Of a DNA stretch of 63,502 nt, positions 55,323 through 61,719 are shown piece by piece (positions within the stretch are counted from its first letter, which is position 1; each line of letters opens with the position of its first letter). A program made the translations under genes and the position numbers. The notes below the pieces were generated by a model that saw only the letters and a program-made list of their open reading frames with translations, did not search any database and was not told the DNA's origin. The stretch comes from an uncultured Treponemataceae bacterium (GTDB taxonomy: Bacteria > Spirochaetota > Spirochaetia > Treponematales > UBA12059). Location: positions 1-63,502 of the forward strand of contig CAZVTR010000006.1 of assembly GCA_964630305.1 (NCBI GenBank). The letters are read 5' to 3'.

Positions 55323-57467
55323 ATGAATCCAACTATACGCGTACTGCCAGGTTCTCCTGCACCGTTTGGTGCAACGCTTGTGCCTGGCGGTATCAATTTT
55401 GCACTGTTTTCACGACATGCAACCAGTATCACACTTGAGCTCTATGCAAACCCTTCAGACAGCACAGCATTTTTTGAATATAAGTTTGATCCTGTCATAA
55501 ACCGCACGGGGGATGTGTGGCATGCAGAGCTCCAGGGCATTGGTGCGGGGACACTCTATGGGTATAGAGTCGACGGTCCCTATATCCCGCAAGAAGGGCT
55601 CCGGTTTAATAAGCACAAACTGCTCCTTGACCCATATGCCAAAGCGCTCACGGGTGATTTTATCTGGGATCTCACAGAGTCCTGCGGCTATGATATTGCG
55701 AGTGAAGAAAAAGACCTTTCGTTTTCGCAAGTTGATAATGCCGGCTTTATGCCAAAGTGCATTGTTATCGATGACACCGCGTTTGACTGGCAGGGGGACA
55801 GACCCCTCAATTTGCCGCTCCGGCATGCCGTAATCTATGAGCTGCACGTTCGCGGTGCCACGCGTCATGGAAGTTCAGGGGTTTCGGCACCTGGCACCTA
55901 TCAGGGAATTATAGAAAAAATTCCGTATTTTAAGGATCTTGGGATAACCAGCCTGGAACTGCTTCCCGTTCAGGAATTTGATTTTTACGAAAACCAGCGC
56001 AAAAATCCTTTTACCGGAGAACAGCTCAAGCAGTACTGGGGGTATAGCACGCTCGCATTCTTTGCGCCAAAAGGAATCTATGCGGCAAGCGGAACCTGCG
56101 GAGAACAGGTGACTGAGTTTAAAACCATGGTGCGCGAGCTCCACAAAGCAGGCATCGAAGTCATCCTCGATGTGGTATTCAATCATACTGCAGAAGGCAA
56201 TGAGCTCGGGCCTACCGTGTCGTTCCGCGGTTTTGATAATCCTATCTGGTACATGCTCGATGAGAACCCGCGATACTACAAGAATTTTTCCGGCTGCGGC
56301 AATACGCTCAACTGCAATAATCCGATTGTGAGGAATTTTATTATCGATTGTCTCCACTACTGGGTTGTGCAGATGCATGTCGATGGATTCAGGTTCGATC
56401 TTGCATCGATACTGGGGCGCGATCAAAAGGGAAAGATGCTCGAAAATCCGCCCATGATTGAGATGATAGCAGAAGATCCTATCCTGCGAAACACAAAGCT
56501 CATTGCAGAAGCGTGGGATGCAGGCGGAGCATATCAGGTCGGTGCGTTTCCCGGCGGCCGCTGGGCAGAGTGGAATGATCGGTTTAGAGATGATGTGCGG
56601 CGATACTGGCGCGGCGATAGCGGTTTTACCGGTGCATTTGCAACTCGAATTACTGGCTCAAGCGATTTGTACCTGCGAGATGGCAGAAAACCCTTTCATT
56701 CAATCAATTATGTATGCTGTCATGACGGTTTTACGCTAATGGATCTTGTTTCGTATAACGGCAAGCATAATGACGAAAATGGCGAGAATAATTTTGACGG
56801 GCATCCGAGCAACTTTAGCTATAACTATGGTTTTGAAGGCCCCGCTAATGATCCAAAGATTCTCGACGTGCGCAGGAGGCAAATTAAAAACTTTTTAACT
56901 ACTCTCTTTTTGTCTCTCGGAACGCCAATGCTCCTCGCTGGAGATGAGTTTGGCAGAACGCAGCAGGGTAACAATAATGCCTGGTGTCAGGACAATGAAA
57001 TTTCCTGGATTAATTGGGACTTGCTCACAGCGAATGCGGATCTGTTTAGTTTTGTAAAAAAACTCATAGCATTCAGAAAACGGCATCCGGCGTTTCATCG
57101 GCCTGAATTTTATACTGGCAAGCAAGGACGCCATAACAAAATGCCTGATATTACCTGGTTTAGTCCCGATGGCGGTGAACCGGACTGGAAGAGCGACAGC
57201 AAGTGTCTTGCGATGCGCATCGATGGGACTAAAGCTGATATTCTCCTTGATAAAGATGATAATGATTTTTTCATCATCTGGAATCCGGAACAGCAATCGG
57301 TGCCTGTCCAGCTTTCAGCGCTGCCTGATGGCAAGCAGTGGTATCGAATAATCGATACGAGCAGGTCCGAAACTGATGCCTTTTATGAAGAGCAGACGGC
57401 TCAGTATGTACCGCACTGTCCGTACATTGCAGGTGCTAATTCTGTTGTGGTGCTGCTTTCCCGATAA
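55323..57467 (+). CDS. glgX: Glycogen debranching enzyme GlgX (GH13_11)
   Basis: 'LLLDPYAK', 'IYELHVRG', 'YWGYST', 'DVVFNHTAEG', 'DGFRFDLAS', 'IAEAWD', 'CHDGFTL', 'QQGNNNAWCQDN'. Confidence 0.95.
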   Translation: MNPTIRVLPGSPAPFGATLVPGGINFALFSRHATSITLELYANPSDSTAFFEYKFDPVINRTGDVWHAELQGIGAGTLYGYRVDGPYIPQEGLRFNKHKLLLDPYAKALTGDFIWDLTESCGYDIASEEKDLSFSQVDNAGFMPKCIVIDDTAFDWQGDRPLNLPLRHAVIYELHVRGATRHGSSGVSAPGTYQGIIEKIPYFKDLGITSLELLPVQEFDFYENQRKNPFTGEQLKQYWGYSTLAFFAPKGIYAASGTCGEQVTEFKTMVRELHKAGIEVILDVVFNHTAEGNELGPTVSFRGFDNPIWYMLDENPRYYKNFSGCGNTLNCNNPIVRNFIIDCLHYWVVQMHVDGFRFDLASILGRDQKGKMLENPPMIEMIAEDPILRNTKLIAEAWDAGGAYQVGAFPGGRWAEWNDRFRDDVRRYWRGDSGFTGAFATRITGSSDLYLRDGRKPFHSINYVCCHDGFTLMDLVSYNGKHNDENGENNFDGHPSNFSYNYGFEGPANDPKILDVRRRQIKNFLTTLFLSLGTPMLLAGDEFGRTQQGNNNAWCQDNEISWINWDLLTANADLFSFVKKLIAFRKRHPAFHRPEFYTGKQGRHNKMPDITWFSPDGGEPDWKSDSKCLAMRIDGTKADILLDKDDNDFFIIWNPEQQSVPVQLSALPDGKQWYRIIDTSRSETDAFYEEQTAQYVPHCPYIAGANSVVVLLSR

Positions 57468-57717
57468 AATGGGTTGAAATGATACACTCACTCACTCAAC
57501 CGATACTTGTTGTTTCATTTTAATACAGTAAACAGTTGTTTGTACTCTGTGTGTAGAATTGTAACACAATTAAAGTTATCCGCAGCGCTTTACACATGCG
57601 ATTTGATGCAGTCGTGCCCGCAAAATAGCGCGGGACTGCCAGCTTTTGTGTTGTTAAGTGTTTGTGTTGTAATAAAATAGCTGCTAGGTCTGATTTTTGG
57701 CAAACTAATATCTGAAT

Positions 57718-57733
57718 TGGCACGAAACTTGCT
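57718..57733 (+). promoter_or_regulatory. Sigma-54 (-24/-12) promoter
   Basis: TGGCAC-GAAAC-TTGCT, an exact match to TGGCAC-N5-TTGCW, ending 26 nt before the sigma-factor ATG. Confidence 0.85.
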
Positions 57734-57759
57734 TGATTAGTATCAGTTCAGGAGGAACC

Positions 57760-58626
57760 ATGAAAACAACACGTGAAATAAAAGAACAGACCAGTGCCGA
57801 TGCCAATGTGCTTTCTATATACTTAAAAGAAATTAATCGAATCCCGCTCATGACCCGCGAAGAGGAAGATCACTATGCGCGGCTTGCTGCTCAGGGAGAT
57901 AAGCTTGCAAAAGAAAAGCTCGTTAAAGCAAACTTGCGGTTTGTTGTAAATGTTGCCAAGAAATACCAGAATCAGGGTTTGCCGCTTGCTGACCTCATAT
58001 CAGAAGGCAATATCGGACTTTTGCATGCAATTGAGCGCTTTGATGTGAGCAAAGGGTACCACTTTATTTCCTATGCAGTGTGGTGGATTCGTCAGGCAAT
58101 TCTCAAGGCAATCTGCGAAAAGAGCCGGCCCATTCGTCTTCCGCTGAACCGGGCTAATGAGCTTGTGCAGATTGAAAAAGCGAAAAAAATTATAAACGAG
58201 AGCATGTCCGAAGATGATGAAGAACAAGAGATAGCGCGTATGCTCAACATGGAACCGGAACATGTCCGTGATTTAGTCGCAGTCAGCAGAGATTTTGTAT
58301 CGCTCGACGCACCCATTTATGATGACAAAGAATCCGGAACACTCGTCGATACGGTGAATAGTTCTGCATATAAGGGACCAGAGGATACCGTTATCGAACT
58401 TGCACTCCGCGACGATATCAATCGTGTTTTGGGAACACTTACAGAAAAAGAGCGCAAAATTATCGAAATGCGCTTTGGGCTAAATAACCATAAGCCGCTC
58501 AGCCTTAAAGAAATTGGCGAAGAGTTTAATCTGACAAAAGAACGCATCAGGCAGATTGAAAAAGCTGTTATAAAACGGCTTTCTGATTCGTATGATGCTT
58601 CGATGCTGGAAAGCTATGTTGCATAA
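57760..58626 (+). CDS. Short sigma-70-family RNA polymerase sigma factor lacking region 1.1 (RpoS-like/alternative)
   Basis: Region 1.2 'SIYLKEINRIPLMT', 'ANLRFVVNVAKKY', 'DLISEGNIGL', 'FISYAVWWIRQAI', region 4 'LKEIGEEFNLTKERIRQIE'; ATG 57760 follows GGAGG. Confidence 0.88.
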   Translation: MKTTREIKEQTSADANVLSIYLKEINRIPLMTREEEDHYARLAAQGDKLAKEKLVKANLRFVVNVAKKYQNQGLPLADLISEGNIGLLHAIERFDVSKGYHFISYAVWWIRQAILKAICEKSRPIRLPLNRANELVQIEKAKKIINESMSEDDEEQEIARMLNMEPEHVRDLVAVSRDFVSLDAPIYDDKESGTLVDTVNSSAYKGPEDTVIELALRDDINRVLGTLTEKERKIIEMRFGLNNHKPLSLKEIGEEFNLTKERIRQIEKAVIKRLSDSYDASMLESYVA

Positions 58627-58671
58627 GGTATGATAGCGGTAGAATCGGAATACAACTGATGTGAAAATTGA

Positions 58672-58701
58672 GGGTACACTGCTGACGTGTGCCCTTTTTT
58701 T
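58672..58701 (+). terminator. Intrinsic terminator after the sigma factor gene
   Basis: GGGTACAC / GTGTGCCC stem followed by T7. Confidence 0.75.
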
Positions 58702-58748
58702 ATGTGCGGATGGTAGGGTGCGCCTCAGAATACGGTTCTGCAACACTG

Positions 58749-59030
58749 CTAGTACAATTCAATGGTAAATGATGCATAGGTTCCTGAGAAGGGCTTTTCG
58801 GTAACGTCGACGGATGTTACATGCGCGCCTGGTGGTCCCTGATGCAGCCACTGGATGTAGCGGTTGACTGCAGATACCGGACCTTCGGCATAGGTTTCTA
58901 CACCTCCGTCAGGAAGGTTGCTTATCCAACCGGTGAGTCCCAGTGATTTAGCAAAATTGCGAGCTTCATAGCGAAATCCGACTCCCTGGACTCGTCCGCG
59001 TATTATTGCTAGAATTGCTTTGTTTTCCAT
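58749..59030 (-). CDS. acyP: Acylphosphatase
   Basis: 'GRVQGVGFR', 'GWISNLPDGGVE', 'WLHQGPP'. Confidence 0.93.
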   Translation of the reverse strand: MENKAILAIIRGRVQGVGFRYEARNFAKSLGLTGWISNLPDGGVETYAEGPVSAVNRYIQWLHQGPPGAHVTSVDVTEKPFSGTYASFTIELY

Positions 59031-59097
59031 AATAGAGTTATCCTGTATTAGTTGTTGTATCTACTGTTGTAAAAACAGCCTGATTTAAATGACAATG

Positions 59098-59126
59098 TTG
59101 ACTAAATTCCTTATAAATTCTATACT
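59098..59126 (+). promoter_or_regulatory. Sigma-70 promoter of the rpmH operon
   Basis: TTGACT (59098-59103), 17 nt, TATACT (59121-59126). Confidence 0.75.
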
Positions 59127-59178
59127 TGCGTCTCTATAAGTCAAGGAAAATCTTTTTTTTATATAGTAGAGGTATCAG

Positions 59179-59334
59179 ATGAAAAGAACCTATCAGCCAA
59201 GCCGAACGCGGAGAGTGCGTAAATTTGGATTCCGTGCCAGAATGGCAACCAAAGGTGGAAGACTGGTATTAAAACGGAGAAGAGCAAAAGGAAGAATCCG
59301 TCTTACCATTTCTGATGAAAAGAAAAAGTATTAA
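59179..59334 (+). CDS. rpmH: 50S ribosomal protein L34 (not in the ORF track; 51 aa)
   Basis: Translated by hand: [51 protein letters not shown]; RBS GAGG. Confidence 0.97.
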
Positions 59335-59346
59335 GCCATAACTAAT

Positions 59347-59697
59347 GTGGTATGTCTGAAGTTTTCCAAAGATGAACGCTTAACGCGTTCTAAGGATATT
59401 CAGCGTGTTTACAGGGAAGGGAAGCGGTATCAAACACAGGGGATGGCAATGCAAGTATGCTATAACTCCCTTGAGAGAACCAGGGTCGTGTTTTCAGCCA
59501 GTAAGAAAGTAGGTACTGCTGTTCGTCGTAATCGGGCAAGGCGTATTTGTTCTGAAATTTGGAGAACAGTATACAAACCCTGGATTACTAAATGGGTTGA
59601 TATCATCTTTATAATACAGCCCTGCCAGGAAGAAACGTTTGAAGAACGAAAAAAGCAGATGCAGATTCTTCTCAAAAAAGCAGGATTGGCACTGTAG
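59347..59697 (+). CDS. rnpA: Ribonuclease P protein component
   Basis: 'FSKDERL', '[15 protein letters not shown]' (RNR motif); synteny. Confidence 0.9.
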
Positions 59698-59698
59698 T

Positions 59699-59920
59699 AT
59701 GAGAAGTGTAATGATTGCAATTATTGCATTTCCGATAAAGCTATATAGAAAATTTATTTCTCCCCTGTTTCCCCCTTCATGCCGATTTTATCCAACCTGT
59801 TCAACCTATGCACTTCAGGCGCTCGATAAGTATGGCCCACTTAAGGGACTATACTTATCGATAAAACGAATTAGCAAATGTCATCCATTCCATCCGGGAG
59901 GTTATGATCCACTGCCATGA
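59699..59920 (+). CDS. yidD: Membrane protein insertion efficiency factor YidD
   Basis: 'YRKFISPL', '[10 protein letters not shown]', '[17 protein letters not shown]'; ATG 59699. Confidence 0.93.
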
Positions 59921-61719
59921 ATACATTTGAAAATGATGATGCAGGATCATCAAAAAGAACCCTGTTAGCTGTAGTCCTTTCCGTGCTGTTTGTCTTTGCA
60001 GTAAGTATTGTACAAACGTTATTTTTTTCACCGCCAGTTCAGGCGCCTCAAAATCAGCAGCCAACAGTCCAGACTCCTCTTCAGGAACAGCAAGCTGTTG
60101 CAGCAGGTACTGAGACTGTACAGCCGCAGCTACCTGTTGAAGATGAATACCAGAAGCTTGTTCCTGAAACAGTTACAGTCGAGACCGATTTTATCAAAGC
60201 TGTTTTTACGAATGAAGGTGGTTCAATAGTTTCTTTGCAGTTAAAGAAACATCTCACGGACGGAAAGCCGGTTGAAATGCTCGTACCGGCAGAAGGACCT
60301 TCTGGATTTGGCGTGATTATTCCTTCGAGCCAAGGAAAGGAAACGCCGCAGCCGCAGCGTGATCTCATGAAATATGAGCGTATTAGTGATACAGTAATTG
60401 AGTTTTCACGTGTGTACTATGCAAAGAATCAGCAGGGTGCGGTTACTTCCTACACACTCAAAAAACGATATGAATTTGTTCCCGATGAATACATTATTAA
60501 GCTTTCGATAATTCATGAAAACACTGTTCCACAGCCTCTTGCTATTGGAAATGGTGAAAGCGCTTATGCTTTATATTTTGGTCCGCAAATTGGACCGGAT
60601 TTTACTGAATTAACTAACTATTCGGATTTTAGACGTATCGTAGTGCTGGAAGGCACTAAGCGAAAGGTTTTGAATACTAAAAACGGCACTATTACACAAA
60701 ATACTCGTTTTACCTGGGCGGGTATTGCAGGGAAATATTTTTCACTCATAGTAATTCCTGACGCTACGCAGTACAGCCTGCGAGCAACCAATATTCAGAA
60801 AAAAGGCGTAAAAGCAGTAACGTCAATGTCGTTTGTCCGTCCGCCTATTACAGCAAGTGCCCAAACCGATACGTTTTACATCTATATTGGACCAAAAAAT
60901 TATAAAGAACTCGCCCGGTATGACGATCCGGCTAAGAATTACTATAAGCACTCTGCAGATAGTCTAACTAAAATCATGGAAGGCAATAATGCTCTCGGTT
61001 GGCTTGAAAGTGCGCTTAAATGGCTCTTAAACCTGTTTTACAGCATTATTCCAAACTACGGTATCGCTATCATTCTGCTGACTATTTTAGTGCGGGTAAT
61101 ACTGGTACCGCTCACGATTAAGAGCAGTAAGAGCACTGCGAAAATGCAGGAAATTCAGCCCAAAATTCAGGAATTGCAGAATAAGTATAAAAACAATCCC
61201 CAGAAATTGAATATTGAACTTGCTGAACTTTATAAAAAGGAAGGGGCAAACCCGCTTTCCGGATGTCTCCCGGTGCTATTGCAATTCCCTATCTTTATTG
61301 CGATGTACAGCTTGTTTAGCAATCATTTTGATTTGCGGGGTGCAAGTTTTATCCCTGGCTGGATTACCGATCTTTCACTGCCAGAGGCAATTGTTAGCTT
61401 TAATACAATTGATTTGTTTATCTGGAAAATAAGCGCTATACGAGCACTGCCAATAATTTACCTTTTAAGCCAGCTCTGGTATGGAAAATTCATGCAGCAG
61501 CCAACGTCTGCAGGGCAAAATCAAAGCCAAATGAATTTTATGCTCTATGGTTTGCCGATAATTTTCTTTTTTGTGCTGTATGATGCTCCATCCGGATTGT
61601 TAGTGTACTGGATTGTTGCGAATATCCTTACGGTTATTCAGCAGTATTTAATAAACAGGTTTATTCATAAGAAAAATGCTGGAAAACCGGCAAAACCGGC
61701 AATTGCCAAAGTTAAATGA
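59917..61719 (+). CDS. yidC: Membrane protein insertase YidC
   Basis: Large periplasmic domain, '[14 protein letters not shown]', '[10 protein letters not shown]', 'NPLSGCLP', 'GLLVYW'. Confidence 0.94.

Follow-up and report, generated by a model that had tools for sequence, protein, structure and literature searches.

The Lyme-disease agent uses the Rrp2-RpoN-RpoS relay as its central virulence switch, and activation at Borrelia rpoS has been described as enhancer-independent. The flagellar sigma-28 gene (fliA) of Vibrio is likewise under sigma-54 control. Transcription of B. burgdorferi rpoS starts from a -24/-12 promoter (PMC3037356, PMC3162934), a sigma-54 promoter is predicted for enterobacterial rpoH (PMC3162934), and a general association of sigma-70-family genes with predicted sigma-54 promoters has been noted (PMC12316311). 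In the literature we searched, a link from sigma-54 to sigma-S is described only for Borrelia (PMC3037356, PMC3162934). Here we analyse a 63,502-nucleotide contig (CAZVTR010000006.1, hereafter the window) from an uncultured Treponemataceae bacterium, in which a sigma-54 promoter box at 57718-57733 stands directly before the gene for an alternative sigma factor. We consider it likely that this box is the working sigma-54 promoter of a short monocistronic mRNA for the sigma factor, reaching from about 57744 to about 58700. An initial annotation had proposed a Borrelia-like cascade in a different organism; the presence of rpoN, an Rrp2-like activator gene and a conserved box supports the cascade, but the organism is itself a spirochaete, which implies shared ancestry with Borrelia and no independent invention, and the sigma factor is most likely not an RpoS orthologue.

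The window is contig C6 of the metagenome-assembled genome (MAG) of a hot-spring spirochaete (G000; 2.34 Mb, 78 contigs, 40% G+C), whose DNA is complete in two hot-spring metagenome runs; G001 is its sister genome. The box, TGGCACGAAACTTGCT on the forward strand, agrees exactly with the -24/-12 consensus, has its GG (57719-57720) and GC (57731-57732) doublets exactly ten bases apart, and is the sole match to TGGCAC-N5-TTGCW without mismatches in the 63.5-kb window. It is followed after 26 nt (57734-57759) by the ATG at 57760. Transcription is predicted to start at about 57744 and the ribosome-binding site, AGGAGG, lies at 57750-57755 on the same strand, so that the predicted leader is only ~16 nt. 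Upstream, the glgX stop codon at 57467 leaves about 250 bp without a credible open reading frame (ORF), and this region gave no Rfam match to a riboswitch or other known RNA at E values up to 1. The exact consensus, the 26-nt gap and the ORF-free DNA had all been pointed out in the initial annotation and are confirmed here.

The sigma gene (57760-58626, forward strand) encodes 288 amino acids that match the Pfam models for sigma-70 regions 1.2 (PF00140), 2 (PF04542), 3 (PF04539) and 4 (PF04545), with no Pfam match to region 1.1, as the annotation had also read it. The best NCBIfam model is rpoS_proteo (TIGR02394), but its score of 264.6 bits is under the cut-off of 378.7, and the cyanobacterial group-2 and RpoD models score nearly as well. 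Because of this, the protein is by its domain content a group-2-like alternative sigma factor, "RpoS-like" in architecture only and no certified RpoS. The terminator named in the annotation was also found: an intrinsic terminator of the sigma gene at 58670-58705 on the forward strand, made up of a 10-pair stem (58670-58696) and a T-run after it.

Counting motifs gives only weak evidence for a promoter. Sites with at most one mismatch number five in the window against 3.3 expected, which is not significant. Genome-wide we found 13 exact boxes, compared with a mean of 4.4 and a maximum of 8 in 30 Markov-1 random genomes, from which ~0.12 exact boxes are expected per window; several of the 13 are clearly intragenic. 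The case for the promoter thus rests on position and conservation. Other exact boxes that are intergenic and face a gene are found at C9:45057, C1:3536, C14:29915 and C7:33588, all on the reverse strand. The genes behind them, with functions read from sequence signatures, encode an Hsp20/alpha-crystallin protein, a methyl-accepting chemotaxis protein, a 959-aa lipoprotein-like repeat protein and a HAMP class-III nucleotide cyclase, respectively.

We refer to the window gene and its orthologues as A-type, and to a second, paralogous sigma gene as B-type. A-type orthologues were present in 39 of the 41 genomes searched within the same order (G000 included), in 80 of 91 genomes sampled over 49 families of the class Spirochaetia and in 55 of 71 sampled over the phylum; rpoN was present in 88 of the 91 class genomes. 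A TGGCA[CT]-N6-TGC box stands a few tens of nucleotides before the start codon at all 30 order-level loci, and a box is found at eight of nine further orthologue loci, two of those reading TAGCAT. Scoring boxes out of 16, with a threshold of at least 15 unless stated, we found one at 54 of 65 class-level loci from ~45 families of Spirochaetia and at 40 of 43 Treponemataceae loci, that of T. pallidum included, whereas only 0.53% of random 370-nt windows of G000 reach this score. At loci from other classes the box was found in 11 of 20 with the threshold relaxed to at least 14. When ~87 A-type promoters were anchored on the box, the only conserved features were TTGGCAyG..TTGCw and a GGAGG block 10-17 nt downstream, and the anchored logo contained no -35/-10 pattern. 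The distance from box to start codon is mostly 20-35 nt over the class, and because it is this tight, a leader of only ~10-20 nt is implied in most free-living lineages. Conservation of the -24/-12 box before orthologues, which the initial annotation had proposed as a check, is therefore borne out throughout Spirochaetia.

We observed one divergent variant. In three genomes of a single family (G067, G095 and G119; family f33) the sigma-54 DNA-binding domain is unusually divergent, matching its model at E values of 1e-11 to 1e-15 versus ~1e-55 elsewhere, and their A-type promoters (loci L132, L137 and L138) read GGGAAC or TGGAAC-N6-TTGC. This may reflect co-evolution of sigma-54 with its -24 element.

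The window gene has orthologues in two well-known treponemes. The T. pallidum orthologue (G214) is the "RNA polymerase sigma-43 factor (sigA)" (AAC65963 / O83976), which we take to be TP1012. The T. denticola orthologue is 59% identical to the window gene and clusters with AAS11428.1 / Q73P62_TREDE. The published TDE0937 primers map inside this ORF, the forward one exactly and the reverse one with a single mismatch, and the gene adjoins groES, as expected for TDE0934-TDE0937; on these matches the T. denticola A-type gene is TDE0937. Induction of TDE0937 was reported to be 2.8-fold by heat, 21.8-fold by oxygen and 14-fold by osmotic downshift (McHardy et al. 2010, PMC2965109). The same study proposed it as a core stress regulator, drew no link to sigma-54 and called RpoS homologues missing in T. 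denticola (PMC2965109). Among the loci of T. denticola and close relatives (L224-L231, L043, L044), most T. denticola strains have the ancestral GGAGG in a leader hairpin, GGAGGTC-AAAAA-GACTTCC, and one strain (G026) keeps TGGCAT.

Transcripts of the locus could be followed in three activated-sludge metatranscriptomes, which contain contigs of a near-identical strain (3 mismatches in ~960 nt). The contigs of the sigma gene have their 5' end at 57754 (depth 77) or 57767 and their 3' end at 58652-58794, and no RNA was found upstream at 57222-57739. The 5' end at 57754 is 10 nt past the predicted +1 at 57744, although contigs of this kind do not resolve true 5' ends. The depth of 77, compared with at most 5 for neighbours including rpmH, is by far the highest over the surrounding 20 kb. 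The RNA fits a monocistronic transcript that starts just past the -12 element, and the top abundance of the sigma transcript in aerated sludge fits a role in stress. Downstream of the sigma gene, an acylphosphatase-like ORF on the reverse strand and then rpmH-rnpA-yidD-yidC on the forward strand occupy 58749-61719 of the window, with low expression in the same metatranscriptomes.

The genome encodes the machinery that a sigma-54 promoter would require, and the search for rpoN and an Rrp2/NtrC-type activator suggested by the initial annotation succeeded on both counts. One intact rpoN is found on C46, as a 458-aa ORF that matches PF04552 at 181 bits and contains the RpoN box ARRTVAKYR. There are six full-length bacterial enhancer-binding proteins (bEBPs; PF00158), with GAFTGA, GAFTDA or GAYSGA loops. 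One of these, at C1:123391-124767, is Rrp2-like: it falls in a clade (Shimodaira-Hasegawa-like approximate likelihood ratio test, SH-aLRT, 99) that also holds Borrelia Rrp2 and the sole bEBPs of four small genomes. It is directly preceded by a gene for a 389-aa histidine kinase (C1:124764-125933), whose stop codon overlaps the bEBP start and in whose product PAS-like, HisKA and HATPase regions can be read from the sequence. By gene order, the pair appears to be arranged like the hk2-rrp2 operon. Beside the 3' end of this operon ends an oppositely oriented run at C1:116935-122492, comprising flhF, a flhG/MinD-like gene, fliA (sigma-28), a FapA/DUF342-like gene and two small ORFs after them; the fliA gene (C1:119713-120501) had no exact sigma-54 box in the genome-wide scan.

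The upstream DNA was expected in the initial annotation to have space for enhancer and integration host factor (IHF) sites. It does contain one enhancer-like palindrome, TGTGT-N9-ACACA (TGTGTAGAATTGTAACACA, 57550-57568), a candidate upstream activating sequence at -168 relative to the -24 box, and its presence suggests that the window promoter is activated from an enhancer; part of the space, however, may be occupied by a weak glgX hairpin. The palindrome is kept in the sister genome and is one of only three exact ones of its kind in G000. Palindromes of the form TGTGT-N7..11-ACACA with at most one mismatch, lying -107 to -220 from the box, were found at 46 of 87 A-type loci, compared with 3 of 36 B-type loci and none of 87 coding controls; their typical form is TGTGTCA-N3-TGACACA. 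The reverse holds for TGTATA-N6-TATACA (at most one mismatch), which was found at 16 of 36 B-type loci at a fixed position, -107 to -117, but at none of the 87 A-type loci and in no coding control. Neither palindrome was found upstream of Borrelia rpoS.

The glgX hairpin, an imperfect GC-rich stem followed by CUUUUGUG at 57608-57645 on the forward strand, has a centroid energy of -15.9 kcal/mol. It was not called in the terminator scan and is not kept in G001; with a z-score of only -1.09 a glgX terminator here is plausible, not significant, and we list it only as possible. Three blocks in the region are near-identical between G000 and G001, all within 57504-57610: CTTGTTGTTTCATTTTAA; TTGT.CTCTGTGTGTAGAAT.GTAACACAAT; and CACATGC..TTTGATGCA. 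From these blocks to the promoter the DNA of the two genomes has diverged. The middle block contains the candidate enhancer.

The B-type paralogue of this genome (C7:56901-57734, locus L204) encodes 278 amino acids, 35% identical to the window protein. In the genome-wide scan its ATG was found to be preceded, at a distance of 24 nt, by a perfect box, TGGCACGCTTTTTGCT (C7:56861), and two degenerate TGTATA-N6-TATACA sites lie at -143 and -110. The gene is barely expressed in the sludge metatranscriptomes (depth ~2). B-type genes occur in roughly 50 of the 91 class genomes, and 36 of the 40 B-type loci fetched have a box that scores at least 15. The Treponemataceae examined for a B-type gene (T. 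denticola G026 and G030, and G034) have the A-type only; an A-type gene is also present in T. pallidum.

We then placed Borrelia RpoS relative to the two types. The genomes taken as Borrelia have RpoD and a single short sigma factor, and the TTGGCA[CT]GATTTTTGC[AG] upstream of the latter is the rpoS promoter. Borrelia RpoS is 39% identical to the C7 paralogue (175 bits) versus 36% to the window protein (147 bits), and it joined the B clade with an SH-aLRT support of 98 in a quick tree and 100/100 in a careful mixture-model tree. The A clade, in which the window protein falls with TDE0937 and the class-wide orthologues, is separate (100/99), apart from RpoD, the B-type and a C11-type; its sister is the B clade, and RpoD branches outside both. 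The T. pallidum protein was placed by similarity only. In the approximately unbiased (AU) test, a grouping of Borrelia RpoS with the A-type was not rejected (delta log-likelihood 6.07, p = 0.40). The upstream neighbour of the C7 gene is a LysM/M23 peptidase gene, not flgJ, and is uninformative on the identity of the B-type with Borrelia RpoS. Orthology of the window sigma with Borrelia RpoS was also considered; best hits and trees favour paralogy, but the AU test is compatible with either, and the window sigma is probably a paralogue of Borrelia RpoS. The simplest reading of these relationships is that one sigma-54-dependent sigma gene was duplicated early in Spirochaetia, with Borrelia keeping B and G000 keeping both.

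In two Borrelia-like genomes the rpoS sigma-54 box is kept while the DNA-binding-domain frame of rpoN is damaged, with eight stop codons in G066 (C1:472400-472828) and a split frame in G118 (C1:475649-476073). This could be pseudogenisation, a laboratory-strain mutation or an assembly error.

In the scheme that we favour, sigma-54 holoenzyme would wait at the box in a closed complex and would fire only once an AAA+ enhancer-binding protein is activated. Core polymerase would next be turned by the new sigma factor to the regulon of that factor, so that the cascade has two sigma steps, and its output would be a stress regulon, as suggested by TDE0937. The activator may be the Rrp2 orthologue, acting through the palindrome at 57550-57568. 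We infer this from four small genomes in which the A-type gene occurs without a B-type gene and the sole bEBP belongs to the Rrp2 clade in every case; it is nevertheless about an even call between the Rrp2 orthologue and one of the other five bEBPs. The palindrome, with one mismatch, is found at three of the four A-type loci examined from these single-bEBP lineages (G105, G057 and G090, not G079). Here G090 enters as a relative of G057, its own bEBPs being uncounted, and G042 is not among the four. G112 has its Rrp2-type gene 4 kb from the A-type gene.

The gene could instead be driven by the housekeeping sigma-70, either through TTGTTA-16-TAAAAT at 57651-57678, which has 9 of 12 matches, or through TTGGCA (57717-57722), which is like TTGACA, with TAGTAT (57738-57743), and the -24/-12 look would then be incidental. 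An A/T-rich "TtATA" does follow the box in many relatives, and most T. denticola strains lack the GG with the gene still inducible (PMC2965109). However, the three sigma-70-like sites in the promoter region are no more than in shuffles (mean 2.8), and no RNA was found at 57666-57739 despite the depth over the gene. The initial annotation had named a start site at a sigma-70 promoter as evidence against its reading; at the resolution of the contigs, there is no RNA support for one at 57651-57678. The spacing is also wrong, at 15 bp between TTGGCA and TAGTAT and 12-13 bp between TTGGCA and the A/T block of the logo, which is too short, and the best-conserved block over ~130 loci is the -12 TTGC, an element without a function in sigma-70 promoters. 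We therefore rejected a sigma-70 promoter, which we regard as improbable, because of the RNA coverage, the spacing and the pattern of conservation. We give still less credence to the idea that the box binds sigma-54 mainly as a poised or repressive site, with the sludge mRNA coming from another promoter that has escaped recognition. In E. coli, many of the conserved sites bound by sigma-54 are indeed not productive promoters (PMC4591121), and RNA contigs are silent on which polymerase made them. Against this, the strict spacing of box, ribosome-binding site and start codon over the class is what is expected of a short-leader promoter, and the interval from the box to 57754 is too short to hold another promoter, with no RNA found further upstream.

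Several observations weigh against the scheme we favour. The RNA comes from the sludge strain and not from the MAG's own sample. The contig of hsp20 (depth 4.6) ends 58 nt short of its predicted sigma-54 start, for which reason we rejected the hsp20 promoter as a calibrator of RNA 5' ends; Logan contigs lose transcript ends, and so the RNA is compatible with a sigma-54 start and not proof of one. In T. denticola, TDE0937 is strongly inducible even though TAGCAT is what most strains carry, and the box may be weakened or dispensable in that species, or another promoter may act there. The window palindrome is the N9 variant whereas the N7 form is commoner, only about half of A-type loci carry such a palindrome, and none was found at the A-type loci of T. 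pallidum or G079. Moreover, T. denticola Hpk2 autophosphorylates better anaerobically (PMC12070737) while TDE0937 rises on oxygen (PMC2965109), and thus a simple line from Hpk2 through Rrp2 to TDE0937 is not self-evident. This opposite response, together with the presence of five other bEBPs that could be the activator, is also consistent with a variant in which the promoter is sigma-54-dependent but is served by one of those five (e.g. the GAF-type protein on C10 or the NtrC-type on C3), with Rrp2 serving the B-type. Borrelia Rrp2 does drive a B-type gene, the different palindromes of A and B promoters imply different DNA-binding activators, and a GAF-type bEBP is common to G000 and T. denticola. 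The sole bEBPs of the A-only genomes, the A palindrome at most single-bEBP-lineage loci, the gene proximity in G112 and the lack of either palindrome at Borrelia rpoS argue in the other direction, and we think this variant unlikely, though well ahead of the two alternatives above.

Returning to the favoured scheme, a sigma-54 promoter with the Rrp2 orthologue as candidate activator, a broader and tentative reading would be that the ancestor of Spirochaetia had two parallel sigma-54-to-sigma branches, derived from the duplicated sigma gene. In branch A, a sigma factor of the TDE0937/T. pallidum SigA type would be fired by Hk2-Rrp2 via TGTGTCA-N3-TGACACA enhancers; in branch B, a sigma factor of the Borrelia RpoS type would be fired by a different bEBP via TGTATA-N6-TATACA at about -110. 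In Borrelia, the A-type sigma and the activator of branch B would have disappeared while Rrp2 stayed, now firing the B-type rpoS from solution, and this would account for Rrp2 acting at rpoS without an enhancer. Treponema sensu stricto, including T. pallidum, would have retained branch A only. If this is true, the Rrp2 of Treponema, which "remains unstudied" in T. denticola according to a 2025 paper (PMC12070737), would together with sigma-54 control the SigA/TDE0937 stress sigma.

Sigma-54-to-sigma wiring is probably old and widespread in spirochaetes, on two sister sigma genes. The locus and its relatives suggest that the relay known as a virulence switch is an inherited, class-wide spirochaete circuit with two paralogous branches and different enhancer sequences. 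The branch in the window is suggested to be the one that Treponema kept, and so names a gene that sigma-54 and Rrp2 may control in T. denticola, a species described as open to practicable genetic manipulation (PMC12878829), and by extension in T. pallidum, where genetics gives little access to the regulators. It would also link the stress-induced sigma TDE0937 to an upstream signalling route. The cascade design is already known from Borrelia; the present analysis adds the A/B assignment of the locus, the identities of the TDE0937 and T. pallidum genes, the single-bEBP argument and the RNA evidence. Our literature search found no sigma-54 link to TDE0937, to T. pallidum sigA or to a class-wide cascade, although an earlier mention is possible.

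Compared with the described systems, Vibrio fliA and enterobacterial rpoH are similar in that sigma-54 switches on another sigma factor in a hierarchical cascade, but they involve other sigma groups (sigma-28 and sigma-32) and have no common descent with the window system. TDE0937, the T. denticola orthologue, shares a box-like sequence and an upstream TGTGTCA-type palindrome; it differs in the TAGCAT at -24 of most strains and in a leader of ~52 nt with a hairpin. T. pallidum SigA is a divergent A-type orthologue, with 43% identity to the T. denticola protein, a longer leader and no palindrome found, but a perfect TGGCATGATATTTGCT precedes its GTG start by 49 nt, and the genome contains rpoN together with a pair of bEBPs, of which one falls in the Rrp2 group. 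A further close system is Hk2-Rrp2/RpoN/RpoS of B. burgdorferi, to which the cascade proposed here would be homologous, with the A-type paralogue as its target. Both have nearly the same box, TTGGCA[CT]GATTTTTGC in the Borrelia loci retrieved, directly before a short sigma-70-family gene without region 1.1; both have rpoN and an Rrp2-clade bEBP after a histidine kinase, and their target sigmas belong to sister clades. In contrast to Borrelia, whose RpoS groups with the B-type and whose rpoS is without an upstream palindrome, the window sigma is A-type and its promoter has one, and G000 contains both the A-type and the B-type gene, each behind its own predicted sigma-54 promoter.

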